A stretch of 64,000 nt of DNA from Heterodontus francisci (Eukaryota), in NCBI RefSeq assembly GCF_036365525.1, contig NC_090399.1:14817558-14881557 (forward strand). Reading direction: 5' to 3'. The position numbers were made by a program, and so were the translations under genes. The notes below the pieces were generated by a model. It worked only from the letters and a program-made list of their open reading frames with translations. It was not told where the DNA came from and did no database searches. How positions within the stretch are numbered: position 1 is the stretch's first letter; each line of letters begins with the position of its first letter. Shown here piece after piece: positions 43,881 to 63,771 of the stretch.

Positions 43881-46265
43881 ATAATTTTAAAAAGGCACAT
43901 TAATCATTTTCATATGGTACTTGATCCAGTAAATAAACAAAAAGATATCCAATCTTTTGCTAAAAAAAAATCAATTTTAGCGTGAAGGAATATAACCCTC
44001 ACAACTTTTAAGAAGTATTTAGATGAGCACTTGAAATGCCATAGCATCCAAGGCTACAAGCCAAGTGCTGGAAAATAGGATTAGAATAGATAGGTGCTTG
44101 ATGGCCAGCACGGACGCGATGGGCCGAAGGGCCTGTTTCTGTGCTGTATAACTCCATGACTCTATTATCTACCCACAGTCCGAGCCATCGTGACAAGCCA
44201 ATTTATGAGGGTTTTAGTTGGCTTATTTCTATTACAGTGATTTTCTTGTTACAATTAGTATGTTTTTGAAAAAAAAGTCTCATCTTCCCTGTCCTCCTCT
44301 TACCATAAAACCATAGATGCTTACAGCACAGAAAGCGCCTCTTTGACTCATTGTAGATTTTCAACCTCCTGGCTGGGTATTAAACTGGCGTTGTGGGTGG
44401 GACTGCTCCTTGTAGAAACTGCCTGACATTAACTTCCATTGGCATATTAATTAGTAGTAAACAAGTGGATGTTTTTAATGCAAAACCGATTGAAATTAGG
44501 TCATGGACATTGTGTAAGTCCTTTTTCAGTTTTGGGGCAGGGTGTGACTTTAACACTCTCAACATCCGCTGTGGTAACTCTAGTGCTTTATTGTTTAAGA
44601 TTGCGCAATATCTGTCAGTAACTGCAGGAAATTGTTCAACTAAAAGTTTTAATTCTTCTTCGGTGTTAATGAGGCAATGGTCTTTTTTTGGGGTGCAAAA
44701 GAAGAAGAATTTGGAACTGGGATCTAAAGAAAAATGGCACGTACTAATTGGCAGACAACTATTTGATTTAAAGACAATTATTTGAACTCCCACGGCATCA
44801 GTCATTTAACGGGTAAAGCAAAGTCAATCTCCCTGCTGCTGTCAACTGATTTTCTTCCGACAACAACACAAGAAATAGGAGCAGAAATAGACCATATGGC
44901 CCATCGAGCCTGCTCCGCCATTCAATACGATCGTGGCTGATCTTGGGCTTCAATTCCACTTTCCTGCCCGCTCCCCATATCCCTTGATTCCCTGTGAGAC
45001 CAAAAATCTATCTATTCCAGCCTTAAATGTATTCAATGATGAAGCATCCACAACCCTCTGTGGCAGAGAATTCCAAAGATTCACAACCCTTTAAGTGGAG
45101 TAATTTCTCCTCTCAGCTTCTACCAGATCAAACCCTGTCAGAATCTTCAATGTCTCAATTAGATCGCCTCTCATTTTCTAAACTCCAGAGAATATAGTCC
45201 CACTCTCTGATAGTTTCTGCTTTTCCCTGCTTATTTTGATTATCCACCAGTACTCTCTGTAAGGAATTCACATATTGTCCTTCGCTTTCATAGCTCAAAC
45301 TCTCTGGTTTAAACTTTGCCTCGTCTCTTTATGATACCCCCCGAAGTAGATTTCTGTCTCCATTGCCCAAGAGGAATACAGTGGAACGGATCAGCCGCTA
45401 TTTGTAGTATTCATCCTATTTTCATCCCGCCAGACGGTGCAGAGGGAAAGAAAAAGCATATTTTAGCATTTTTCAAATGCTTTAAAAAGGAACAGATTTG
45501 GTCGGAGGTGAACAAGGAGAGGTGGGACTGTTTGGGCAGAGATACCACCCTATAGAGTTTGTGTCAGGTGCCTGCTTGGGGAGTGGCGATGACTGGAGCC
45601 GAAGGTTGGGTACGAGTGTGGTGGGAGCACATTCCGAAGCACAGGTCATGTGCAATCGGCCTCTGGTTGACTGGTCTAATGTTGATGCCTCTGTGGATGC
45701 TGAGTCCTGACCTTTGTGACCCGCTGGTACATCCTGGAGTGACTGTAGCAGGCTGGGCTGAGAGTGAAACTGAATGCTTTTGTGAGAATAGCCTGGGGAG
45801 CAAACTAGGGAACATAGGACTTAGGAGCAGGAGTAGGCTATTCGGCCCCTCGAGCCTGCTCCATCATTCCATAAAATCTTGGCTGACCTGGTTGTGGTCT
45901 CAACTCCACTTTCCTGTCTGCCTCTCCGTAATCCTTGACTCCATTGTCTATCAAAAATCTTACTCAGCCTTGAACAAATGTAATGACTCAGCCTCCACTG
46001 CTAACTATAACTACATGCATTTTTTGTTCCATAATGCTGGAGTCCATAATTCTGCTTTCCATGTGGTATTATGTTGTGTTTGTGGATAAGCACCATTGCT
46101 GTCCTAGTAATGAACAATGGCTTCTTAGAGGAAGCTGCTGAAGTCAATGAAAATAAAAATCTGGAGCACTGTAAAATGGGCTGTCAATTCTCTGTCTTTT
46201 ACACTACAAGGAAGAAGGAGCTTGCATTGATATGGTTCATTTTACGACCTCAGATGTCCCAAAGC

Positions 46266-46295
46266 ACTTACCCGGCAGGGGAGAGACCATGATCA
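46266..46295 (+). ncRNA. U1 snRNA 5' fragment (nt 3-32) at the 5' end of the Tx1 element; not a U1 gene
   Basis: ACTTACCCGGCAGGGGAGAGACCATGATCA vs U1 ACTTACCTGGCAGGGGAGATACCATGATCA: 28/30 identical. Confidence 0.85.
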
Positions 46296-49134
46296 GTTGC
46301 CTTTGATCCTGTTCCAGGTAGGTAACCAATTCTAGAGCTTCAGGCCAGGGAGTGCGTAACACCGTTCGGGTGTTGGTGAAAGATAATGAAGGAGGTGCAC
46401 CTGCTGACCGTACCTTCTTCATTAAGAAAATCCTTATCGATGGCTGTGCGTTCCAAGCTATAGACACCTTCTGCCTGCAAGACTGCCCCAGCAGTGGATA
46501 TTTCGACGTGCCATTCAAGAATGTGGCGGGATGCATCAAGTTCCGGAAGGCTTTCAAGGAGAAGGGAAACAAGGTGCCGCTGTCGATCCACACAGTGCAA
46601 CCATTCTTCATGCTGCTGTCACAACGCGACTGGGTGGTGACAATCCACTTCTACAACCCCCATGTTCCTGTCGTGGATGTACTCACCTTCCTTGCCAGGT
46701 ACATCGAGGTGGCCGGCAACAGCACTGATGCCAGGGACCCATTTGGGATTTGGACCAGCAAGCGACAGGTCAAGGTGACCTTGAAGGTCGATGCCAACGG
46801 TGCTATCATCCATCCTCCCTCCAGCTTCACTATCGGGGGAAGTTGAGGCTTCTTGGTCTATATTGGGCAGCCCAGAGTTTGTCGTACCTGCGGCAAATCT
46901 GGTCATGTAGCAGCCAACTGCAGCACAGTTGTCTGCAAGAACTGAAAGAAGGAAGGCCATCAGACCAAGGACTGTAAACCAAGCAAGTGCTGCAACTTGT
47001 GCGGTGGAACTGGCCACTTCTGCAAAACCTGCCCCAAATGCTGCCTCAGTTATGTTCAGGTGGCAAGGTCCAAGGAAAGGCCGGGAGAAGGAACGGTGAA
47101 CACGTCTGGTACTGGGAAGGAGATAAGCAATCCTCCCCGCAGCGAGAGAAACAGCGGGAGAGGAGAGCTTTCAAAAAGCACGCCAGAACCTCGGAGATTA
47201 GCAGAGAAGCAGCGGGAGAAGAGCAGGAGGTTCAGATGCAAATCAAAAATCGAAAAGTGAGGTCAAGATCAACAGAAAGCGTGGGGTTCAAATTAGGAGC
47301 TGGGTAATTAACATTTGGCTACCCGCATTACGGAGCTGGAGCTGCAGGTGGATTCATTATGGAGCATCCATGATGTTGAGATAGTCGTGGATAGCACGTT
47401 TAGCGAGGTGGTCACACCGCAGGCAAATGCTGCAAAGGCAGAAAGGGAATGGGTGACTACAACGCAGAGTAGAGGAAGACAGGTAGTGCAGGAGTCCCCC
47501 GTAGCCATCCCCCTCTCTGATAAGCCACTTTGGATATTGTTGGGGGAGATGGCTCAGGGGAAATCAGCAAGAACCAAGTTCATGGCACTATGGGTGGCTC
47601 TGCTGCACAGGAGGGGAGGAAGAAGAGTGGCAGGGCTATAGTGATAGGGGATTCAATCGTAAGTGGAAAAGACAGGCATTTCTGTGGCCACAAAAAAGAC
47701 TCCAGGATGGTACGTTGCTTCCCTGGGGCTAGGGTCAAGGATGTCTTTGAGCAGCTGCAGGGCATTCTGAGGGGGAGGGCAAACAGCCAGTTGTTGTGGT
47801 ACATATCAGTACCAATGAGATAGGTAAAAAAAGGGATGAGATCCTACAAGCTGAATATAGGGAGTTAGGACATAAATTAAAAAGTAGGACCTCAAAGGTA
47901 GTAATCCTGAGTGTCACGTGCTAGTGAGAGCAGAAGTAGCAGGATACATCAGATGAATATGTGCCTGGAGAAATGGTGTAGCGGGGAGGGATTCAGATTC
48001 CTGAGACATTGGGACCGGTTCAGGGGAAGGTGGGACCAGTGCAAGTTGGACGGGTTGCATCTGGGCAGGACCAGGACCCATTTCCTCGGGAGGGTATTTG
48101 ACACTGCTGTCGGGGAGGGTTGCAACTAGAATGGCAGGGGGGTGGGAATCTGAGCAGGGAGACAGAGGAGGGGGAAGCAAGGATAGAAATGAAAGACAGA
48201 AAGGGAAGAAGCAAAAGTGGAAGGCAGAGAAAACAAGAGCAAAAGACAAATGGACCGTCGTGCAAAATAAAGCTAAGATGACGAACAATGTTAAAAGGAC
48301 AAGTCTAAAGGCATTGTTTCTTATTGTGCGGAGCATTCGCAATATGGTAGATGAATTAACAGTGCAAATAGATATAAACGGTTATGATATAGTTGTGATT
48401 ACGGAGACATGGCTGCAAGGTGACCAAGGATGGGAACTGAACATCCAGGGGTATTCAATATTTAGGAAGTACAGGCAAAGAGAGAAAGGAGGAGGGATAG
48501 CGTTGTTAGTAAAGGAGGAAATCAATGCAATAGTGAGAAAGGATTTTGGCTCGGTAAATCATGACGTGGAATCTGTATGGGTGGAGCTAAGAAACACCAA
48601 GGGGCAGAAAATGTTGGTGAGGTTATCTATAGGCCCCTAAACAGTAGTGGAGATGTAAGGGATGGCATTAAAAAGGAAATTAGAGACGCATGCAATAAAG
48701 GTACAACTGTAATCATGGGTGACGTTAATCTACATATAGATTGGGCAAACCAAATTAGCAATCTTACTGTGGAGGAGGATTTCCTGGAGTGTGTACATGA
48801 TGGTTTTTTAGACCAATACATTGAGGAACCAACTAGGGAACAGGCTATGCTAGACTGGGTATTGTGCAATGAGAAAGGATTAATTAACAATCTTGTTGTG
48901 CGGGGTCCCTTGGGGAGCAGCAACCATAGCATGATAGAATTCTTCATTAAGATGGAGAGTGAAGTAGTTGAATCCGAAACTAGGGTCCTGAATCTAAATA
49001 AAGGAAACTACGAAGGTATGAGGCGCGAGTTGGCTAGGGTAGATTGGGGAACTTTACTAAAAAGGGTTGACAGTGGATAGGTAATGGATAATATTTAAAG
49101 AATGTGTGCATGAATTACAACAATTATTCATTCC

Positions 49135-52100
49135 GACGGGATTTTCGTTTGTCTCTTTCACCTTGTTCACCTTCATTGCTTTCTATTTCCCTCCTGGTGT
49201 TTGATAAGGTATCTACCAAAACTCGTTTTCACAGCCACATCTCCTTCCTCAGTGACTGTTTCTGGCTCCGACTGATTCCACGTGGATTCCAACTGCAGTT
49301 TCACCCATCATGCTTTGAAACCACCCAGGATCACAGGTATCTCCGAGAAATACAACGTTCCTCGGACTGCTACTCTCGCCGCATCCTGAGATCCACACTC
49401 AGTGCTATGCGCCGCCATATGCACACACTGGACCTCTCTCTCCAGCAGCACCGTCTCACCTTATCTCAAATCTGTTCTACTCCGCAGTTTCATCTCATCT
49501 TACGTCTCATCCGACGCATTAACAAAAAACTTTTTTTCTTCCTTTCAGGTGTTAAGGAACACAAGCTCCAGCAGCTGATGGGGACTAATGCCCCTCCAGA
49601 TCCTCCTTCCGCTTCACTTCCCTCTGACCCCACCCCTTCTGATCTGACCCCTTGCCGTGTATTCACTATACCCTCTGACCTCCCCCTCTCTGATGCTGAG
49701 CGTTCTGTACTCAGCAAAGGTCTCAGTTTTATCCCCTTACGCCCCCACCTCAATGAATTTCGCGCTCGGCATGACGTTGAGCTCTTCTTCCGTCGCCTCT
49801 GCCTCCGGGCTCACTTCTTCGACCAGGAGTCCTCCCCCCGACCAGCAGACCCATTCACCCGCCTCCAGCATTCTCCCTCTACCTGGACCCCTCCCCCTGG
49901 CCTCTTACCCGCTCTTGATCTCTTCATTGAAAACTGTCGGCGAGACATTGGTCGTCTCAATTTCTCTGCCCCCCTCACTCACTCTAACCTGTCCCCCTCT
50001 GAACTTGAGGCACTCCGTTCTCTCAGGTCTAACCCCGACATGGTCATCAAACCTGCAGACAAGGGTGGTGCTGTTGTTGCATGGCGTACCGACCTCTACC
50101 TTGCAGAAGCTCAACGCCAACTCACAGACACCTCTTCCTACCTCCCTCTGGACCATGACCCCACCACCGAACATCAAGCCACCGTCCAAAGGACTGTCAC
50201 TGACCTCATCTCCTCTGGAGATCTTCCCTCTACAGCTTCCAACCTCATAGTCCCGCAACCCCGGACAGCCCGCTTCTACCTCCTTCCCAAAATCCACAAA
50301 CGGGACTGACCCGGCAGACCCATTGTGTCAGCCTGCTCCTGCCCCACTGAACTTATTTCTTCCTATCTAGACTCTATCTTTTCTCCGCTGGTCCAGTCTC
50401 TTCCCACCTACATCCGTGACTCTTCTGACGCCCTACGTCATTTTGACAATTTCCAGTTTCCTGGTCCCAACCGCCTCCTCTTCACTATGGACGTCCAATC
50501 GCTCTACACCTCCATCCCCCACCAGGATGGTTTGAGGGCTCTCCGCTTCTTCCTGGAACAGAGGCCCAACCAGTCCCCATCCACCAACACCCTCCTCCGC
50601 CTGGCTGAACTTGTTCTCACATTGAACAACTTCTCCTTCAACTCCATGCATTTCCTTCAAGTAAAAGGTGTCGCTATGGGTACCCGCATGGGTCCTAGTT
50701 ATGCCTGTCTTTTTGTGGGATATGTCGAGCATTCTTTGTTCCAGTCCTACTCAGGCCCCCTCCCCCAACTCTTTTTCCGGTACATTGATGACTGTATCGG
50801 TGCCGTTTCCTGCTCCCGCCCCGAACTAGAAAACTTTATCAACTTTGCTTCCAATTTCCACCCTTCTCTCACCTTTACATGGTCCATCTCTGACACTTGC
50901 CTTCCCTTCCTCGACTTCTCTGTCTCCATCTCTGGGGATAGGTTGTCTACCAATATCCATTATAAGCCCACTGACTCCCACAGCTACCTCGACTACACTT
51001 CTTCACACCCTACCTCCTGTAAGGACTCCATTCCATTCTCCCAGTTTCTCCGTCTCCGACGCATCTGCTCTGATGATGCTACCTTCCATGACGGTGCTTC
51101 TGATATGACCTCCTTTTTCCTCAACCGAGGATTTCCCCCCACTGTGGTTGACAGGGCCCTCAACCGTGTCCGACCCATTCCCCGCACCTCTACCCTCACC
51201 CCTTCCCCTCCCTCCCAGAACCATGACAGGGTTCCCCTTGTCCTCACTTTTCATCCCACCAGCCTCCATATCCAAAGGATCATCCTCCGCCATTTTCGCC
51301 ACCTCCAGCGTGATGCCACTACCAGTCGCATCTTCCCCTCCCTTCCCCTGTCAGCATTCCGAAGGGATCGTTCCCTCCGCGACACCCTGGTCCACTCCTC
51401 CATTACCCCCACCACCTCGTCCCTGTCCCAGGGCACCTTCCCTTGCAATCGCAGGAGGTGTAATACCTGCCCATTTACCTCCTCTCTCCTCACTATCCCA
51501 GGCCCCAAACACTCCTTTCAGGTGAAGCAGCGATTTACTTGTACTTCTTTCAATGTAGTATACTGTATTCGCTGCTCACAGTGTGGTCTCCCCAAGCGCA
51601 GACTGGGTGACCGCTTTGCGGAACATCTCCGCTCAGTCCGCAAGCAGGACCCTGAGCTTCCGGTTGCTTGCCATTTCAACACTCCCCCCTGCTCTCATGC
51701 TCGCATCTCTGTCCTGGGATTGCTGCAGTGTTCCAGTGAACATCAACGCAAGCTCGAGGAACAGCATCTCATCTACCGATTAGGCACACTACAGCCTGCC
51801 GGACTGAACATTGAGTTCAATAATTTCAGAGCATGACAGCCCCCCACTTTACTTTCATTTTTAGTCATTTTTAGTTATTTTTTCTTCCTTTTTTTTTTAC
51901 ATTCCTTTTTACATTTTTTGCAATCTTTTTTTGCATTTATTTCATTTCATCTTAGTTTGTTCAGTTTGCTTACCCACTGTTTTTTTCAGGTTGTTTTTCT
52001 TCAGGTTTGCACTTGCTGCTGTTCAATATTCAGTGTATTAACAGCTAATCTGTACTAATGCTTTGCCTTTCAACACACCATTAACATATTGTTTGCCTTT

Positions 52101-52353
52101 GCTCCGTGACCTTTTGGTCAGCTATGTGGCCTGGTCCAATCTGCACCTTCTCCTTTGTTATCTCTTGCCCAACCCCCACCTCACTTGTTTATAATCTCTA
52201 ACTTTTCTAATATTTGTCAGTTCCGAAGAAGGGTCGCTGACCCGAAACGTTAACTCTGCTTCTCTTTCCACAGATGCTGCCAGACCTGCTGAGTGATTCC
52301 AGCATTTCTTGTTTTTGTTTCAGATTTCCAGCATCCGCAGTATTTTGCTTTTA
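49135..52353 (+). mobile_element. Penelope-like element (RT + GIY-YIG endonuclease)
   Basis: ORFs 49104-50309 and 50325-51836 are in one frame with one stop; KPADKGG, FYLLPKIHK, DVQSLYT, GVAMG, RYIDD, NVVYCIRC; 13-bp TSD AATTATTCATTCC at 49122-49134 and 52354-52366. Confidence 0.92.
52219..52255 (+). ncRNA. Hammerhead ribozyme motif (variant core) in the Penelope 3' repeat
   Basis: AGTT-CCGAAGA-A-GGGTC(gct)GACCC-GAAA-CGTT-AACT. Confidence 0.6.
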
Positions 52354-53085
52354 AATTATTCATTCCTGTCTGGCGTAAAAATAAAACCGTAAAGGTGGCT
52401 CAACCATGGCTTACAAAAGAAATTAGGGATAATATTAGATCCAAAGAGGAGGCATATAAAATTGACAGAAAAAGCAGCAAGTCTGAGGATTGGGAGCAGT
52501 TTAGAATTCAGCAAAGGAGGACAAAGAGGTTGATTAAGCGCGGGAAAATCGAGTATGAGAGTAAACTTGCAGGGAACATAAAAACTGACTGTAAAAGCTT
52601 CTACAAATATGTGAAGAGAAAAAGATTAGTGAAGACAAATGTAGGTCCCTTACAGTCAGAAACGGGGGAAATTATAATGGGGAAACAAAGAAATGGCAGA
52701 ACAATTAAACACATACTTTCGTTCTGTCTTCACAAAGGAGGACACAAATAATCTCCCAGAAATGTGAGGGAACCAAGGGTCTAATGAGAGGGAGGAACTG
52801 AAGGAAATCAGAATTAGTAAAAAAAAAATAGTGCTAGAGAAATTAATGGGGTTCAAGGCTGACAAATCCCCAGGACCTGATAATCTACATCCCAGAGTAC
52901 TAAAGGATGTGGCCCCGGAAATAGTGGATGCATTGGTGGTCATCTTCCAAAATTCTATAGACTCTGGAGCAGTTCCTACAGATTGGAAGGTGGCAAATGT
53001 AACCCCCACTATTTTAAAAAGGAGGGAGAGAGAAAACAGGGAATTACATGCCAGTTAGCCTTACATCAGTAGTGGGGGAAATGCT

Positions 53086-53982
53086 TCTTCTTCTTTGGCC
53101 TCCTTGTCTCGGGAGACAATGGGTAAGCACCTGGAGGTGGTCAGTGGTTTGTGGAGCAGTGCCTGGAGTGGCTAGAAAGGCCAATTCTAGAGTGACAGAC
53201 TCTTCCACAGGTGCTGCAGAAAAATTTGTTTGTCGGGCTGTTACACAGTTGGCTCTCCCCTTGCGCTTCTGTCTTCTTTCCTGCCAACAGCTAAGTCTCT
53301 TCGACTCGCCACACTTTAGCCCCGCCTTTATGGCTGCCCGCCAGCTCTGGCGAACGCTGGCAACTGACTCCCACGACTTGTGATCAATGTCACAGGACTT
53401 CATGTCGCGTTTGCAGACGTCTTTAAAGCAGAGACATGGACGGCCGGTGGGTCTGATACCAGTGGCGAGCTCGCTGTACAATGTGTCTTTGGGGATCCTG
53501 CCATCTTCCATGTGGCTCACATGGCCAAGCCATCTCAAGCGCCGTTGACTCAGTAGTGTGTATAAGTTGTGGATTTTGGCCGCCTCGAGGACTTCTGTGT
53601 TGGTGATACGGTCCTGCCACCTGATGCCAAGTATTCTCCGGAGGCAGCGAAGATGGAATGAATTGAGATGTCGCTCTTGGCTGACCTACGTTGTCCAGGC
53701 CTCGCTGCCATAGAGCAAGATACTGAGGACACAGGCTTGATCCACTCGGACTTTTGTGTTCCGTGTCAGTGCGCCATTTTCCCACACTTTCTTAGCCAGT
53801 CTGGACATAGCAGTGGAAGCCTTTCCCATGCGCTTGTTGATTTCTGCATCTAGAGACAGGTTACTGGTGATAGTTGAGTCTAGGTAGGTGAACTCTTGAA
53901 CCACTTCCAGAGCGTGGTCGCCGATATTGATGGATGGAGCATTTCTGACGTCCTGTCCCATGATGTTCATTTTCTTGAGGCT
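53086..53982 (-). mobile_element. RTE-clade LINE, 5'-truncated
   Basis: LEVVQEFTYL, LLYGSEAWT, RWLGHVSHMEDGRIPK; (GAA)n tail; TSD AAATGCT at 53079-53085 and 53986-53992. Confidence 0.88.
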
Positions 53983-56900
53983 GGAAAATGCTAGAGTGTA
54001 TTATAAAGGATGTGATAGCAGAACACCTGGAAAGTATAAACAGGGTTGGACAAAGTCAGCATGGATTTACGAAAGGAAAATCATGCTTAACAAATCTACC
54101 AGAGTTTTTTGAGGATGTAACTAGTAGAATAGATAAGGGAGAACCAGTGGATGTGGTGTATTTAGATTTTCAGAGGGCTTTTGATAAGGTCCCACATAAG
54201 AGGTTAGTGTGCAAAATAAAAGCACATGGGATTGGGAGTAATATACTGGCATAGATTGAAAATTGGTTGACAGACAGGAAACAGAGAGTAGGAGTAAATG
54301 GGTCTTTTTCCAGGTGGCAGGCAGTGACGAGCGGGGTACCGCAGGGATCAGTGCTTGGGCCCCAGCTATTCACAATATATATTGATGACTTGGGTGAGGG
54401 AACTAAATGTAACATTTTCAAGCTTGCAGATGACACAAAGCTGGGTGGGAATGTGAGCTGTGAGGAGGATGCAAAGAGGCTCCAATGTGATTTGGACAAG
54501 TTGGGTGAGTGGGCAAATGCATGGCAGATGCTGTATAATGTGGATAAATGCGAGGTTATCCACTTTGGTTGTAAAAACAGAAAGGCAGATTATTATCTGA
54601 ATGGTGATAGATTGGGAAAGGGGGAGGTGCAATGAGACCTGGGTGTCCTTGTACACCAGTCGCTGAAAGCAAGCATTCAGGTGCAGTAAGCAGTTAGGAA
54701 GGCGAAAGGTATGTTGGCCTTCATTGCAAGAGGATTTGAGTATAGGAGCAAGGATGTCTTACTGCAGTTATACAGGGCCTTGGTGAGACCACATCTGGAG
54801 TATTGTGTGCAGTTTTGGTCTCCTTATCTGAGGAAGGATGTTCATGCCATGGAGGGAGTGCAAAGAAGATTTACTAGGTTGATTCTTGGGATGGCAGGAT
54901 TGACGTACGAGGAGAGATTGGGTCGACTAAGGTCTATATTCACTAGAGTTTAGAAGAATGAGAGAGGATCTCATAGAAACCTATAAATTTCTAATAGGAC
55001 TAGACAGGCTAGATGCAGGGAGAATGTTCCCGATGGCTGGGGAGTCCAGAACCAGGGGTGACAGTCTGAGGATACCATACAATTTCCCACTCACCCAACT
55101 TGTCCATTTAGAACCGAAATGAGGAGAAATTTCTTCACTCAGAGGATGGTGAACCTGTGGAATTCTCTAGCGCAGAAGGCAGTGGAGGCCAAGTCATTAA
55201 ATATATTCAAGAAGGAGATAGATATATTTCTTAATGCCAAAGCGATCAAGGGATATGGGGAGAAAGCGGGAACAGGGTACTGAATTAGACGATCAGTCAT
55301 GATCTTTTTTGAATGGCGGAGCAGGCCTGAAGGGCCGAATGGCCGATTCCTGCTCCTATTTTCTATGTTTCTATGATTCTATCTGAGAAAGAGAAGAAAG
55401 TGGGGGCAGCTGCAACCAGCGACCCAACACCTACCCCGCCCCCGGAAACTCCTCCTCTACAGACAGAATCAATGGAGGAGGAGGCAGCAGATGGACAAAC
55501 TGGTCAGTGGCAAGTGGTACAAAGGAAAACCACAAAGAAGAAACCTCCAAACAAGGAACAGATCACCACCCAAACCAGTGGCAAAAGGAGCCTACCTTCT
55601 GAGACAGACTACGGCAGCTCCTCCTCATTGGACGAGGAAGAGCCGGAAAGACGGCACCTGCAAAAGAAGTGGCAGAACTCAAAGCAGCTGGAAGAGAAAG
55701 CTCCAAGCTCCGGGGCACTGGAAGCTGTGACAGGCCCAGTGTGCGCCAAACCCAGTGAGATGCCCAGTGCACTCCAGCTCCGGGAGACCGAGAGCAGCGA
55801 AGCGTCTGGTGCACTCCAGCTCCGGGGAGCTTGGAGCAGTGATATCTTCGAGGAGGGACAAAGGGGAAAGGCACCACCAGCAGAGGACAACCCAAGCCTT
55901 GCTGCCTACGAGATCGCACCCCCACCGATGTCACCCCAGCGGAATAAAACCCCCATGAGTAACAGGACGGGTTTCTGAGCCCAAAGAATGTGAAACAGTT
56001 TGTGTACATTACGGGTATGCAGGAACATACCCAAAGTCTGGGACTAGCAAGGACAACTGGTGTGGTAAGCAACACCCAACTTTAAAATGGGTTTAAAGAT
56101 TGCTTTGATTAACGTGTGTAACGTTAAATCCATTATGCGATGTGTTTCGATCTTGGACTACCTCACCAAGGTCCTGGCCGACCTGCTGTTTCTGCAGGAG
56201 TGTGGAATACCACACCTCAGCACCTACAGGCTATGGTCGCGATGGTGGTCCCACGGGCCATCGATCTGGTCAGGGGGTAATGATTCCCGTTCCTCCGGCT
56301 TGGATATTCTGCTGCGGGGAGGCAACTTCACCATCTCCGAAGTTAAGGAGGTGGTGGGTGGTCGCCTCCTCATAGCAAATGCAATGTACAACAACGCTGC
56401 GCTCAGGTTGATCAACCTGTAGGCCCCAGTTCAATGCAGCAAACAACTGAACGTGCTCCAGCAGCTCCCACTGCTGCTGGCAACATCCAGACCGGTCATT
56501 CTAGGTGGTGACTTCAACTGCATCATTAACGCAGCTGGACAATCCGGCAGTGACAACAGAAAACAGGACGCGATGTCCAGATTCCTAATGGAAGCAGTAA
56601 AAGATGCCAAGCTGCACGACTCCTTCAGCAAACCTGCAGACTGAGTGCAGCATAGATACACCTGGTTAAGACTGGATGGGTCTGCCTGTTCCAGGATTGA
56701 CTTCCTGTTTGTGTCCCGTGCTGTCACGGTCAGATCCACCGGTCAAGCTGGTGTTCTTCTCCGACCACTGCCTCTTACTGGCCAACTGTCACTTACAGGA
56801 TGACCAGCGGGTTAGCAGGGGGACATGGAAGCTGAATGTAACACTGCTAACCCCAGAGAATATTGAGGAACTCAAAAGGGATTACAAAGGTTGGAGAACC

Positions 56901-59684
56901 GTGAAACCCCTCTTTGAGTCTCTGGTGCACTGGTGGGAGGTGATCATGGAGAACATCAAGAGGTCCTTTATCCTCAAAGGTGTTCAGAGGGCGAGAGAGA
57001 GACAGAGAAAAGAATGCAAAATCTGCTCCGGCTGCAGTCGATGGGAGTCGAGGTCAAGGAGGATCTCCAAGAGGTGAAGAGCCAGCAGGCCTCGCTCTTT
57101 GCCACTTCCAAGATCATCTTCTGGTCCAGAGTCCGCTCCGTTGAGCAGGATGAGACGTGCTCGCATTACTTCTTCCAAAAGGTACAGAGAGAGACCTCTG
57201 TGATCAGCAGCCTGAAGGAAGAGGATGGCTCGGTAACGTCTTCACAGTCTGACATACTAAGGATTAGCAAATCATTTTATGCTGGGCTGTATGACGTGAA
57301 GCCCAGGGACAGCAGAACCTCCCAGTCCTTCCTGTCATCTATCACGGAGGTCTTAGATGACAGCATGAGGGAGAGTCTGGACAAACCGATAACTCTGGAC
57401 GAGCTGACTAAGGTTGCCAGGTTCTTCGAGATGAGCAAAACTCCCGGAAGTGACGGCTTACTGGTTGAGTTGTATTTGGGTCTGTGCGACTGGATCGGCC
57501 CAGACCTGCTGGAAGTATACAAGAGTATGTTTCTGGCCGGCAGCATCTCAGAATCCATGAGGAAAGGCATCATCACCCTCATCTACAAGCGGAAGGGGGA
57601 GAGGGTGGAAATCAGAAATTGGCGGCCCATCTCACTGCTTAATGTAGACTACAAGATTCTGTCCAAAGTTATCGCCAGTCGAGTCAAGTCTGCTCTGGAG
57701 TTGGTGATTCACCCTGACCAGACCTGCACTGTACCCTGCAAGACGATCTCTGATAGCCTCGCGCTACTCAGGGATACGATCGCCTAGGTACGGGACAGGA
57801 GGGTGGACACCTGCCTCATCAGCTTGGACCAGGAGAAAGCTTTTGACAGAATATCGCACACCTACATGATGGACGTGCTTTCCAAAATGGGGTTTGGGGA
57901 GGGAATCCGCAATTGGGTCAAACTGCTCTACACAAACATCAGTAGCGCAGTTTGAATCAATGGGTGGGAATCAGAAAGTTTCCCGATCAAATCTGGAGTC
58001 AGACAGGGCTGTCCTCTCTCCCCTGTCTTGTTTGTTTGCTGTATTGAACCTTTTGCTGAGTCCATTAGGAAGGATGTGGGTATAAGAGGGGTGACAATCC
58101 CAGGCAGTGGAGGCACTCAGGTCAAAGCCTCACTGTACATGGACGACGTTGCCTTTTTCTGCTCGGATCCGCCGTCCGTTCGCAGACTGATGAGCATCTG
58201 CGACCAGTTCAAACTGGCTTTGAGAGCCAAAGTTAACCACGGCAAGAGCGAGGCCATGTTTTTTGGGAACTGGGCTGACCGATCCTTTGTCCCCGTCACC
58301 GTCAGGTCAGACTACCTGAAGGTGCTGGGGATATCGTTCGGAAGGGTCGGGGCGTGTGCCAATACCTGGAAGGAGCAAGTAGCCAGGATACACCATAAAT
58401 GGAGTAGCGTTCTCTCTCCATTGTGGGAAAGAACCTGGTCATCAGGTGCGAGGCGCTCACGTTGTTGCTGTATGTGGCGCAGGTCTGGCCCATACTCAAC
58501 TCCTGCGACATGCCGTTAACCCGAGCCATTTTCCATTTTATCTGGAGATCCAAAATGGACCGTGTCCGGAGGGACATGATGTTCAAACCTTTGGATAAGG
58601 GCGGAAAAAATGTACCCAACATCGCCCTCATCCTGATGACCACCTTTGTGTGCGGCTGTGTCAAGCTGTGCGTAGAACTCCAGTACGCAAACACCAAGTG
58701 TCACTACGTGCTGTCTGTCCCCGGTGCTGTGAAGGATGGGTCTGGTCACATTGCCGCGGAACACTCCATCCAGTTGGACCATGCCGTACCACCTATCCTT
58801 CGTGGAAAAGTTTGTGCAGAAAAACACCTTTGACCACCAATCCATCAGGCAGTGGTCTGCATGGAATGTCCTCAAGGCCCTAAGGGAAAAGGAGATGGTG
58901 GATCCGGTCGGATGGTTCCCCGAGCAGACTGCCAAAGTCATTTGGCAAAATGCCTCATCACCAGAACTTTCAAATAAGCACCAAGACGTAGCTTGGCTGG
59001 TGGTGAGAAGGGTCCTCCCCGTCAGATCCTTCTTGCACGCCCGGAATCTCACTGCCTCCGCACAATGCCCTCAAAGTGTTTGTGGTGGGGAAGAGACTGT
59101 TGCCCACCTCTTTCTGGAATGTGTCTTTCCAAAACATGTGTGGAAAGAGATGCAGTGGTTTTTGTCGAGGTTCATCCCAAGCAGCTCTGTAACACAGGAG
59201 TCTGTGCTCTACGGGCTGTTCCCAGGGACACACATCTAGATAAACATTAACTGCTGCTGGAGGACTATCAATTCAGTGAAAGACGCTCTTTGTTCTGCCC
59301 GGAACTTGCTGGTCTTCCAGCGCAAAGAGGTGTCCACGACCGAGTGTTGCAGACTGGCACATTCCAAGGTCCAGGAATGCACTAAAGCTTGGAGGCAGCC
59401 GCCGAAAAGGCTCAATGGGGAAAGACCACTGTATAAGGTCCTCCCGCCATAGTGAACTGAGGGGCTGGAACCCGTATAAAACCTCTCAGGCTGTATACGC
59501 CAAATATGGGTTTGCTGTAAAATATACATGGCATGTAAAATGGAATGGAAGGGTTGTGAGGCAACTCACTCCTGTGTTGAAGAAAATTGATTTACTTTGC
59601 ACTTTCTAGTTTGTCAACTTGGTGCTGTTTTAAAATTTTTTTTTTACTGATTTTAATGAATAAAGTATATTTTTGGGGAAAAAT

Positions 59685-60923
59685 AGGTCCATACCCCACT
59701 CCTGCGCCGTGGCAGTCACCCGAGCCATTTTCCGCTTCGTCTGGGGATGTAAAATGGACCGGGTCCGGAGGGACACGATGTTCAAATCTCTGGACATGGG
59801 CGGGAAAAATGTACCCAACGTGGCCCTCATCCTGATGACCACCTTCGTGTGCGGCTGCATCAAGCTATGTGTAGATCCCCAGTACGCAAACTCCAAGTGT
59901 CACTACGTGCTGAGGTTCTATCTGTCCCCGGTGTTGCGAAGGATGGGCCTGGTCACATTGCCGCGGAACGCACCATGCAGTTGGGCGGCACCGTACCACC
60001 TATCCTTCGTGGAGCAGTTTCTGCGGAAAAACACCTTTGACCACCGGTCCATCAGGCAGTGGTCTGCACGGAATGTCCTCAAGGCCCTACGGGAAAAGGA
60101 AACGGTGGATCCTGTCGGATGGTTCCCCGAGCAGACCGTCAAAGTCATTTGGCGGAATGCCTCATCACCAGAACTTTCAAACAAGCACCAAGACGTAGCT
60201 TGGCTGGTGGTGAGAAGGGCCCTCCCCGTCAGATCCTTCATGCACACCCGAAGTCTCGCCCCCTCCGCACAGTGCCCCCGCGTTGGCTGTGGTGGGGAAG
60301 AGACGGTCACCCACCTCCTCCTGGAATGTGCCTTTGCAAAGCAGGTGTGGAAAGAGATGCAGTGGTTTTTGTCAAGGTTCATCCCAAGCAGCTCTGTAAC
60401 ACAGGAGTCTGTGCTCTACGGGCTGTTCCCAGGGACGCACACCGAGACAAACATCAACTGCTGCTGGAGGACTATCAATTCGGTGAAAGACGCCCTTTGG
60501 TCTGCCCGAAACTTGCTGGTCTTCCAGCGCAAAGAGTTGTCCACCACCGAATGTTGCAGACTGGCACATTCCAAGGTCCAGGACTACGTGCTGAGGGATG
60601 CACTAAAGCTTGGGGCAGCTGCAGCAAAGGCTCAATGGGGAAAGACCACAGTGTAAGGTTCCCCCACCAAGCTAGACTGAGGGGCTGGATCAATGGGAAA
60701 CCCCTCGAACTGTATCGTTAATATTCTCAGTTGCTGTAAATGTAAAACTGTAATTGACATGACAATTGTGTAACGGAAGGGTTGGGAAGAAACTCGTGAC
60801 AGTATTGAAGGAAACTGATCTCCCTTGCAATGTTTGTATTTTTTGGTGCTGTTTGGAAACTGTTTGGCAATGTAATTTTTACAGATTTTTATGAATAAAG
60901 TATATTTTGGAAATAAAAAAAAA
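59685..60923 (+). mobile_element. Second Tx1-clade LINE, 5'-truncated, with intact ORF2 C-terminus
   Basis: Open 327-aa frame homologous to 58490-59435; distinct 3' UTR; AATAAA + poly(A). Confidence 0.9.
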
Positions 60924-63677
60924 CGTAAGGCAGATGAACTTAGAGCTTGGATTAGTACTTGGAAATATGATGTTGTTGCTATTACAGAGACTTGGTTGAG
61001 GGAAGGGCAGGAGTGGCAGCTAAATGTTCCAGGCTTTAGAAGCTTCAGGCGGGATAGAGGGGGATGTAAAAGGGGTGGAGGAGTTGCATTACTCGTTAAG
61101 GAGAATATCACAGCTGTACTGTGGGAGGACACCTCAGAGAGGTCGTGCAGCGAGGCAATATGGGTGGAGCTCAGGAATAGGAAGGGTGCAGTCACGAAGT
61201 TGGGGGTTTACTACAGGCCTCCCAACAGCCAGCGGGAGGTAGAGGAGCAGATATGTAGACAGATTTTGGAAAGATGTAAAGGTAACAGGGTTGTAGTGGT
61301 GAGTGATTTTAACTTCCCCTATATTGACTGGGACTCACTTAGTGCTAGGGGCTTGGATGGGGCAGAATTTGTGAGGAGTATCCAGGAGGGCTTCTTGAAA
61401 CAGTATGCAGATAGTCCAACCAGGGATGGGGCCATTCTGGACCTGGTATTGGGGAATGAGCCCGGCCAGGTGGTCGAAGTTTCAGTGGGGGAGCATTTCG
61501 GGAGCAGTGACCATAATTCCATAAGTTTTAAGGTACTTGTGGATAAGGATAAGAGTAGTCCTCGGGTGAAGGTGCTAAATTGGGGGAAGGCTAATTATAA
61601 CAATATTAGGCAGGAACTGAAGAATTTAGATTGGGGGCGGCTGTTTGAGGGTAAATCAACATCTGACATGTGGGAGTCTTTCAAACGTCAGCTGATTAGA
61701 ATCCAGGACCAGCATGTTCCTGTGAGGAAGAAAGACAAGTTTGGCAAGTTTTGGGAAGCTTGGATAACACGGGATATTGTGAGCCCAGTCAAAAAGAAAA
61801 AGGAAGCATTTGTAAGGGCTGGAAGGCTAGGAACAGATGAAGCACTTGAGGAATATAAAGACAGTAGGAAGGAACTTAAGCAAGGAGTTAGGAGGGCTAA
61901 AAGGGGTCATGAAAAGTCATTGGCAAACAGGATTAAGGAAAATCCCAAGGCTTTTTATACATATATAAAGAGCAAGAGGGTAATCAGGGAAAGGGTTGGC
62001 CCACTCAAGGACAGAGATGGGAATCTATGCGTGGAGCCAGAGGAAATGGGTGAGGTGCTAAATGAGTACTTTGCATTAGTATTCACCAAGGAGAAGGACT
62101 TGGTGGATGATGAGCCTAAGGAAGGGAGTGCAGATAGTCTCAGTCATCTCATTATCAAAAAGGAGGAGGTGTTGGGTGTCTTGCAAAGCATTAAGGTAGA
62201 TAAGTCCCCAGGGCCTGATGGGATCTACCCTAGAGTACTGAGGGAGGCAAGGGAAGAAATTGCTGGGGCCTTGACAGAAATCTTTGCATCCTCATTGGCT
62301 ACAGGTGAGGTCCCAGAGGACTGGAGAATAGCCAATGTTGTTCCTTTGTTTAAGAAGGGTGACAAGGATAATCCAGGAAATTATAGGCCGGTGAGCCTTA
62401 CATCAGTGGTAGGGAAACTATTAGAGAGGATTCTTCGGGACAGGATTTACTCCCATTTGGAAACAAATGAACTTATTAATGAGAGACAGCATGGTTTTGT
62501 GAAGGGGAGGTCGTGTCTTACTAATTTGATTGAGTTTTTTGAGGAAGTGACGAAGATGATTGATGAGGGAAGGGCGGTGGATGTCGTCTATATGGACTTT
62601 AGTAAAGCCTTTGACAAGGTCCCGCATGGCAGACTGGTGCAAAAGGTGAAGTCACACGGGATCAGAGGTGAGCTGGCAAGATGGATACAGAACTGGCTCA
62701 GTCACAGAAGACAGAGGGTAACAGTGGATGGGTGTTTTTCTGAATGGAGGGATGTGACGAGTGGTGTTCCGCAGGGATCAGTGCTGGGACCTTTGCTGTT
62801 TGTCGTATATATAAATGATTTGGAGGAAAATGTAGCTGGTCTGACTAGTAAGTTTGCGGATGACACAAAGGTTGGTGGATTTGCGGGTAATGATGAGGAT
62901 TGTCAGAGGATACAGCAGGATATAGATCGGTTGGAGACTTGGGCGGAGAAATGGCAGATGGAGTTTAATTACGACAAATGTGAGGTAATGCATTTTGGAA
63001 GGTCCAATGCAGGTGGGAGGTATGCAGTAAATGGCAGAACCCTGAGGAGTATTGACAGGCAGACCGATCTGGGCGTACAGGTCCACAGGTCACTGAAAGT
63101 GGCAACGCAGGTGGATAAGGTAGTCAAGAAGGCATACGGCATGCTTGCCTTCATCGGTCAGGGCATAGAGTATAAAAATTGGCAAGTCATGTTGCAGCTG
63201 TACAGAACCTTAGTTAGGCCACACTTAGAATATTGCGTGCAATTCTGGTCACCACACTACCAGAAGGACGTGGAGGCTTTGGAGAGGGTACAGAGGAGGT
63301 TTACCAGGATGTTGCCTGGTCTGGAGGGCATTAGCTATGAGGAGAGGTTGGAAAAACTCGGATTCTTTTCACTGGAACAACGGCGGTGGAGGGGCGACAT
63401 GATAGAGGTTTACAAAGTTATGAGCGGCATGGACAGAGTGGATAGTCAGAAGCTTTTTCCCAGGGTGGAAGAGTCAGTTACTAGGGGACATAGGTTTAAG
63501 GTGCGAGGGGCAAAGTTTAGAGGGGATGTGCAAGGCAAGTTTTTTACACAGAGCGTGGTGAGTGCCTGGAACTTGCTGCCAGGGGAGGTGGTGGAAGCAG
63601 ATACGCTAGCGAAGTTTAAGAGACATCTTGACAAATATATGAATAGGAAGGGAATAGAGGGATATGGGCCCCGCTAG
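60891..63677 (+). CDS. CR1 ORF2 (APE endonuclease + reverse transcriptase), 928-aa open frame with a chimeric start
   Basis: Uninterrupted; ITETW, SDFNFP, SDHN, YMDFSKAFDKV, KFADD; the first ~11 codons come from the Tx1 tail. Confidence 0.85.
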   Translation: MNKVYFGNKKKRKADELRAWISTWKYDVVAITETWLREGQEWQLNVPGFRSFRRDRGGCKRGGGVALLVKENITAVLWEDTSERSCSEAIWVELRNRKGAVTKLGVYYRPPNSQREVEEQICRQILERCKGNRVVVVSDFNFPYIDWDSLSARGLDGAEFVRSIQEGFLKQYADSPTRDGAILDLVLGNEPGQVVEVSVGEHFGSSDHNSISFKVLVDKDKSSPRVKVLNWGKANYNNIRQELKNLDWGRLFEGKSTSDMWESFKRQLIRIQDQHVPVRKKDKFGKFWEAWITRDIVSPVKKKKEAFVRAGRLGTDEALEEYKDSRKELKQGVRRAKRGHEKSLANRIKENPKAFYTYIKSKRVIRERVGPLKDRDGNLCVEPEEMGEVLNEYFALVFTKEKDLVDDEPKEGSADSLSHLIIKKEEVLGVLQSIKVDKSPGPDGIYPRVLREAREEIAGALTEIFASSLATGEVPEDWRIANVVPLFKKGDKDNPGNYRPVSLTSVVGKLLERILRDRIYSHLETNELINERQHGFVKGRSCLTNLIEFFEEVTKMIDEGRAVDVVYMDFSKAFDKVPHGRLVQKVKSHGIRGELARWIQNWLSHRRQRVTVDGCFSEWRDVTSGVPQGSVLGPLLFVVYINDLEENVAGLTSKFADDTKVGGFAGNDEDCQRIQQDIDRLETWAEKWQMEFNYDKCEVMHFGRSNAGGRYAVNGRTLRSIDRQTDLGVQVHRSLKVATQVDKVVKKAYGMLAFIGQGIEYKNWQVMLQLYRTLVRPHLEYCVQFWSPHYQKDVEALERVQRRFTRMLPGLEGISYEERLEKLGFFSLEQRRWRGDMIEVYKVMSGMDRVDSQKLFPRVEESVTRGHRFKVRGAKFRGDVQGKFFTQSVVSAWNLLPGEVVEADTLAKFKRHLDKYMNRKGIEGYGPR

Positions 63678-63771
63678 TGCAGAAGGTGTTAGTTTCGGCA
63701 GGCATCAAGATCGGCGCAGGCTTGGAGGGCCGAATGGCCTGTTCCTGTGCTGTCCTGTTCTTTGTTCTTTG
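60925..63771 (+). mobile_element. Young CR1 LINE, 5'-truncated
   Basis: Same family as 15748-16805 and 27305-30011; (TTCTTTG)n tail. Confidence 0.92.

Follow-up and report, generated by a model that had tools for sequence, protein, structure and literature searches.

The window, a stretch of 64,000 nucleotides from Heterodontus francisci, contains a LINE copy of a Tx1-type lineage that is dead, lies off target and begins with a piece of U1 snRNA (Table 1). The head differs from host U1 at a single position (blastn E 8e-9), and the next-best ungapped 30-mer to the U1 head in the window, on both strands, reaches 18/30. The match reported in the original prediction is real, but its count of 28/30 came from the U1 of another host. 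Among the 42 host U1 genes and pseudogenes listed, 37 have G at nt 22 (counted by eye), and one of the two mismatches thereby disappears. The remaining mismatch, U10>C at position 46273, is absent in 29 other retrieved copies and is private decay of the window copy.

The body of the element differs from its first description. An 18-nt deletion at about 46321/46322 has removed the ORF1 start codon, so that the remnant frame begins at 46322; in relatives the family ATG sits behind a 70-nt UTR. The element is broken apart by an 8.2-kb retroelement nest. It is 85% identical to an intact relative (L072). The linker contains a 5′-splice-site-like 10-mer (46314–46323) complementary to U1 nt 3–12, and by-eye alignments of the linker as a possible relic of U1 nt 38–51 or of U2 nt 11–28 are too weak to favour one of them.

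A U1 promoter has no match anywhere in the window; the upstream flank, described in the original prediction as a SINE tail and not a U1 promoter, is a decayed repeat piece, presumably of a SINE. As originally claimed, the rest of U1 is missing behind both Tx1 3′ ends of the window. A TSD of the U1-headed copy was not found. An Rfam search of the whole window and of 45800–46800 (E up to 10) returned no U1, no ribozyme and one chance snoRNA match, and Rfam is blind to the 30-nt U1 piece on its own.

Table 1. Features of the window around the U1-headed copy (positions in the window)
Feature	Positions	Strand	Remarks
5′ flank without a U1 promoter: decayed piece of an interspersed repeat	46193..46265	.	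75% to one other locus
U1 snRNA-derived head, U1 nt 3–32	46266..46295	+	29/30 to host U1
Family linker, predicted 3′ arm of the 5′-UTR hairpin	46296..46323	+	
Tx1 ORF1, 5′ part	46322..47151	+	stops and frameshifts; two ZCCHC3-type RNA-binding domains (PF23057, PF23058)
Later nested insertions interrupting ORF1	47152..55378	+	EN-bearing LINE (presumably CR1-like) holding an RT element (~49131–52352) and an antisense fragment (~53084–53980)
Tx1 ORF1, 3′ part, and spacer	55379..56086	+	
Tx1 ORF2 (EN-RT-zf), broken	56087..59436	+	RVT_1 and zf-RVT in the window; Exo_endo_phos in the intact relative L072
3′ UTR of the U1-headed copy, with its short A tail	59437..59684	+	
Subfamily Y copy (young, U2-led), 5′-truncated and abutting the first tail	59685..60922	+	98.7% to intact L072

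Two other elements lie nearby. The nested RT element at 49131–52352 has a weak RVT_1 match, a 13-nt direct repeat on both sides, and a C-terminal motif that we take to be a Penelope-like GIY-YIG. The other, at 60923–63770, is a recent EN-RT LINE with a 933-codon open frame, presumably CR1-like, whose insertion point is the A tail of the younger Tx1 piece.

The U1 head in the older subfamilies

The older subfamilies of the lineage, B, A and A′, all begin with U1 nt 1–32, and head and junction are fixed across the three. A DNA search with the element gave 2667 candidates; among the best 39 other scored matches, 37 align from within the head, in a score ranking that slightly favours headed copies. 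The 29 retrieved loci start at U1 nt 1–5 (16 loci) or nt 9–11 (10 loci), with three that are unparsed but headed. Exact-pattern genome searches for head plus junction gave 26 and 161 matches, with none for the controls. Eight of the 26 belong to subfamily B, which has the same head and ORF1 and a UTR about 130 nt longer. A one-off chimera of U1 and LINE at the window locus, made by a single template switch, was the other branch of the original prediction. Nothing beyond the single window speaks for it, and it is refuted, with a probability close to nil, by the same junction in all 161 exact matches and all 29 retrieved relatives; the unrelated flanks of these copies agree with the other branch, a family-wide head.

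The retrieved old copies are all off-target (20/20), and the 20 long old-copy stretches show neither a U1 promoter upstream nor a U1 or U2 remainder after the tail. The TSDs of relatives are about 10–16 nt long and frequently overlap the first head bases. The base ahead of the head (n = 26) is G in 10, C in 9, A in 4 and T in 3; since it often lies within the TSD, it proves neither a cap nor a U1 start. A cap-derived G at this position was considered and set aside, being inseparable from TSD microhomology. No shared 5′ flank is seen by eye among the retrieved copies, except Tx1 tails and U2. Headed copies often follow immediately after another Tx1 tail (L022, L024, L025, L052, L059, L094, L124, L125, L132, L133, and the window at 59684/59685), and the short spacer between the two is the TSD in resolved cases.

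A more divergent relative, about 72% identical to Y, occurs in the snRNA cluster of C41 (L195, L203, L211) with a shortened U1 piece, which in L195 matches nt 7–30. This relative suggests that the head may be older than subfamily B.

The 70-nt UTR is predicted to form a single hairpin in three A copies (z −3.4 to −3.9, dinucleotide shuffles), with −1.9 for a fourth. In the predicted hairpin the upper part of U1 stem I is kept, with 5 nt in the loop, and U1 nt 3–17 are base-paired to a stretch containing the 5′-splice-site-like word. The hairpin scores poorly for the window copy (z −0.65), for A′ (−1.4) and for Y (−0.55). The core stem forms in 7/7 B heads with 13 of 14 pairs (z −1.6 to −3.0, mononucleotide shuffles). 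The pair 22–38 is G-C in all 8 B rows; in A it is G-C in 28/50 and A.C in 18/50, and in A′ A-U in 26/34 and G-U in 8/34, many of the hairpin rows having been chosen by exact-head patterns, which biases head identity there. This compensatory change is a single two-step event. Because nt 3–17 are paired in the model, the head in the window's subfamily is predicted to be hidden in cis and not free to mask splice donors. The free splice-donor-complementary 5′ end with U10>C that was originally proposed is therefore not supported on either count, the base change being private. Recruitment of U1 snRNP by the hairpin UTR is speculation.

Insertions in U2 and U1 genes

Insertion in U2 and U1 genes, about 33–42 nt past the gene start, is shown for old and young subfamilies of the lineage. 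The original prediction missed that the lineage inserts in U2, in a Keno-like manner, that it also enters U1 genes, and that its later subfamilies are U2-led.

Subfamily Y: The second Tx1 of the window belongs to this young subfamily (best 40 matches at at least 99%). One Y copy, L072, is intact, with open frames of 520 and 1136 codons; its ORF2 of 1136 aa contains Exo_endo_phos, RVT_1 and zf-RVT. The element is 5.3 kb long with two ORFs, and ORF1 contains PF23057, PF23058 and zf-CCHC; A tails are present in relatives. An ORF2 with APE-type EN and RT, an ORF1 with RNA-binding domains and CCHC, a polyA tail and TSDs are the features of Tx1-type elements. By its architecture and U2 target the lineage is presumably of the Tx1 clade. 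Seven of the 20 Y copies retrieved lie in U2 genes of tandem arrays and 13 are off-target. Those in U2 genes have promoter-side and 3′ U2 sequence, with U2 nt ~38–52 duplicated. U2 junctions fall at nt 33–38 in 18 rows, and the 3′ flank begins at nt 38 in 14 of the 18; an old-clade Tx1 tail also joins U2 nt 38 (L166). At L071–L077 (C41, C734) the U2 genes are arrayed in tandem with a 577-bp unit, and Tx1 insertions there are often tandem too, parted by the U2 TSD.

The Y head consists of U2 nt 1–52 followed by a decayed U1 head, which is 23/31 identical to U1 with all 8 changes in nt 3–18 (by eye). The Y head pattern has 623 matches genome-wide. Among the 100 dispersed heads listed, which all lie on C1–C13, away from the U2 arrays, 95 have U2 5′ sequence and about 25 reach U2 nt 1 (by eye). 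As the U2 promoter is external, such heads are what read-through from U2-resident masters would leave. Parts of a Y stretch occur in 23 sequencing runs, nearly all of them as contigs, whose RNA nature is only guessed and which therefore do not count as evidence of expression.

U1 genes: The host U1 genes cluster on C41 and C32. A pattern of an A run followed by U1 nt 41–51 gave 188 matches (control 1). A Tx1 tail lies directly in front in 98 of the 100 listed; 89 of the 100 are one amplified unit, and the count for the nt 41 junction is biased by the pattern chosen. Across retrieved loci, U1 junctions fall at nt 38–42 in 27 rows, which represent about 7 events. At L189/L190, a modern U1 gene, the promoter (99%) and nt 1–54 are followed by two full-length Y elements, a polyA and nt 40–164; L202 has a U1 promoter, nt 1–55, a truncated Y and nt 40–164, and L213 a Y tail with U1 nt 40–164. 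In two of the events the U1 gene hit keeps its promoter and both halves intact, and both promoter-flanked U1 fronts that are missing from the intact-gene set (2/2) are interrupted by insertions. L189/L190, judged by its sequence, is a candidate live source of U1-U2-Tx1 transcripts. At this locus (C41, ~6.047–6.058 Mb) a U2 leader lies between U1 nt 1–54 and the Y elements. The original prediction proposed to look for copies with a PSE upstream and the rest of U1 downstream; a U1 promoter in front and the U1 remainder behind are found around young copies, and none of the full-length old copies retrieved stands directly behind a U1 promoter.

In the tail tree (50 rows) U1-flanked tails occur in three places: L166/L185 and L172 group with the window copy in an old clade, the amplified unit falls in a pre-Y clade, and others belong to Y. 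The clade uniting the window copy and the old U1- or U2-joined tails has support of 100/99. A 7-mer is common to U1 nt 28–34 and U2 nt 25–31, just upstream of the insertion sites, and is also in the Rfam U1 consensus.

The amplified unit comprises a U1 promoter, a decayed nt 1–32, an A run, Tx1 pieces and nt 41–164, and breaks U1 at nt ~32, the same position as the head breakpoint. It is present on C35, C28, C50 and many unplaced contigs (L137–L145, L173–L180), and accounts for most of the 188 matches. It is a decayed U1 gene whose nt 32–41 gap has repeatedly collected Tx1 fragments of different ages, including young ones. The 5′ half of the C8 U1 locus was not found in ~39 kb upstream. A pattern of an A run with U1 nt 29–46 was discarded: it lay upstream of the real junction, and its single match was a piece of U1 lacking a Tx1 tail.

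Order of the subfamilies: ORF1 trees of 66 and 43 rows, with near-complete matches to the query stretch and duplicate loci excluded, give a ladder of B, A, A′, U2-led and Y. Tip lengths are ~0.08–0.11 for B, ~0.05–0.07 for A, ~0.04–0.06 for A′ and U2-led copies, and ~0.005–0.01 for Y; the trees are midpoint-rooted, so the direction of the ladder rests on these lengths. Intact U1 heads with a U2 leader in front occur in B (L057, L122) and in A′ (L116–L121, L153, L154, L159), and the leaders are joined on at several distinct points. U2-led heads are 7/100 among the old heads listed and 87/100 among the A′-junction heads listed, many of the latter being amplified duplicates. Decay behind the U2 leader is graded: C9>T comes first, followed by G16>A, A3>G, C8>T and further changes that lead to the Y form. 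Heads with A22 make up 26 of the 61 non-U2-led A and A′ rows, as an A.C or A-U pair with nt 38. A22 is absent from all 42 present U1 genes, so at least nt 22–32 are inherited through the element. Two dispersed A′ copies (L134, L147) have an extra U1-like piece (nt ~4–51) ahead of the head, a structure to be expected from read-through out of a U1 locus. The pair of sisters L156 (U2-led) and L157 (U1-only) was dropped as evidence, being only 93.7% identical with no common flanks.

Origin of the head

The best reading, at a probability of about 0.6, is that the head was captured from U1 genes and that masters were read from U1 genes. An ancestor would have landed in a U1 gene and captured its head there. 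The element would have no promoter of its own, and its RNA would start at the start of the host snRNA gene; the UTR being of only 70 nt, the RNA would begin with the snRNA gene, whose front becomes the head. U1-resident masters may have been renewed on entry into further U1 genes, with the 5′ junction there resolved through the homology of the head. Masters would later have moved to U2 arrays, and the U1 piece would thereby have turned into a passenger. Subfamily Y in U2 genes is best read as the same mechanism that is proposed for the U1 head. The branch of the original prediction with masters in or read from U1 genes, followed by dispersal, is thus supported, though no full-length U1-resident master was found. 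A full-length old copy directly behind a U1 promoter is seen in 0/20, 0/18 and 0/20 retrieved copies, and exact-pattern searches for a U1 flank plus head gave one non-promoter match and then zero, with patterns that overlook the majority of old copies. In the clean U1 insertions the 5′ junction lies at nt 51–55, not 32, so that the head needs either a target deletion or a later loss of nt 33–37 with divergence of nt 42–54.

A more elaborate course of events is a possibility to be held tentatively. The lineage would hop between snRNA promoters, residing at first in U1 genes with a head renewed by homology. Its fold-back UTR with a near-perfect 5′ splice site would hide the splice-site-binding end or recruit U1 snRNP so that a 5-kb transcript gets through snRNA-type termination. 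It would then occupy U2 arrays, where the U1 head decays, and would go on entering U1 genes at about +40 to this day.

Alternatively, the masters could reside in U2 genes or elsewhere, and as reverse transcription ends the cDNA could jump, guided by homology, from the U1-like stretch of the element onto the abundant U1 snRNA and end at U1 +1, whereby nt 1–21 would be renewed each time and the U2 leader dropped. This is less likely, although it has precedent: Kojima (2015, PMC4494074) credits snRNA head additions to template switching. It would fit the failure to find a U1-resident master, the U2 leaders that stand before intact U1 heads as early as B (L057, L122) and the several junctions of such leaders in A′. 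It would also suit the U1-only copies with host-type C9 (L127, L157, L162, L163) or G22 (L164) that stand among U2-led ones in the trees, but these placements are in open forks that lack support, and with 5% decay some single-base reversions are to be expected. With 7 of the 100 old heads listed being U2-led, more than 90% switching would be needed; copies of the L116 type, at 29/31 U1 identity, kept their U2 leaders (87/100 listed, many of them amplified duplicates), and the insertions seen in U1 genes are not predicted by such jumps. Less probable again is that the hairpin head itself is a working unit, either an internal promoter or a signal for processing, by which the RNA 5′ end is set at U1 +1 whatever transcript runs in from upstream; it would have been captured once in ancient times and kept by selection. 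The junction fixed over the whole lineage, the core stem in 7/7 B rows (13/14 pairs) with one two-step compensatory change, and a head that decays only once the U2 leader is gained are consistent with such a unit. However, the compensatory change is a single event on the ladder, decay behind U2 is equally expected if masters were read from U1 genes, and the region matches neither a ribozyme nor any other family in Rfam; nor is an internal promoter reported for snRNA genes (PMC4494074).

Relation to known elements

A U1 head on a Tx1 LINE is already known, and the present element is a variant of a published type. U1/U2 heads are described for the crocodilian Tx1-Mar families Tx1-2_Crp, Tx1-2B_Crp, Tx1-4_AMi and Tx1-11_Crp and also for SINEU (Kojima 2015, PMC4494074); the U1 heads are those of Tx1-2_Crp, Tx1-2B_Crp and Tx1-4_AMi. 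The suggestion that the family may be catalogued with its head thus holds in part, for crocodilians. The present lineage shares with Tx1-Mar an autonomous Tx1 with a U1-derived 5′ head, U1 and U2 pieces stacked in sequence, and tandem insertions around the TSD (PMC4494074). Tx1-Mar co-clusters with Keno, its target is mostly a Mariner transposon, and its heads are described as gained via template switching (PMC4494074). Unlike Tx1-Mar, the present copies lie inside U1 and U2 genes and display a dated series from U1-led to U2-led. SINEU is a short non-coding retroposon (PMC4494074), whereas the present element has 5.3 kb and two ORFs.

Keno is an APE-type Tx1 LINE specific for U2 genes (PMC4640811, PMC4494074). 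The present lineage resembles it in its APE-type EN and RT and in repeated insertion at one U2 site (nt 38 flank in 14/18), a likeness of target gene. It differs in its loose specificity (13/20 young and 20/20 old copies off-target), in having U1 genes as a second target, and in its U1 head. The lineage thus works like Keno and is not a strict Keno member.

The snRNA-targeting elements listed in PMC4640811, as known at its date, are only Keno, Utopia (U2), Dada-U1 and Dada-U6; Keno and Utopia are likewise assigned to U2 and Dada to U1 and U6 in PMC4640811 and PMC8869645. U5 is named as a Tx1 target in the legend of Fig. 3 of PMC4494074. Dada-U1 also inserts in U1 genes, but it is a DNA transposon with no RT, and the available text of PMC8869645 reports no head on dispersed copies. 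LINE insertion into U1 genes is not described in the literature searched.

The head is real, family-wide and mechanistically informative; the window copy itself is dead. A single genome holds a readable series: young copies sit in U2 and U1 genes whose promoters are intact, dispersed copies begin at or near snRNA +1, and intermediates have a U2 leader and a U1 head that decays base by base.

R2 elements are promoterless and are read from their target gene, with target 5′ sequence on the RNA that is cut off by a ribozyme. The present lineage, as proposed here, is similarly a promoterless element read from its target gene with target 5′ sequence on its RNA. In contrast to R2, it would use a Pol II snRNA promoter and retain the host 5′ end as its head, and it has an APE endonuclease and many off-target copies. 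Co-transcription of R2 with 28S rDNA is noted in PMC4494074. How snRNA-headed retroposons are transcribed is left open there, as U1 and U2 have no internal promoter (PMC4494074). Promoter borrowing would likely explain the transcription of the RNA-headed elements known from crocodiles. Copies with intact ORFs exist, so promoter borrowing, escape from snRNA 3′-end termination and dual-site targeting are directly testable.

Short U1 retro-fragments are also present on C17 (L110, nt 12–107) and C1 (L204, nt 1–71), with the same type of interspersed repeat directly after each.
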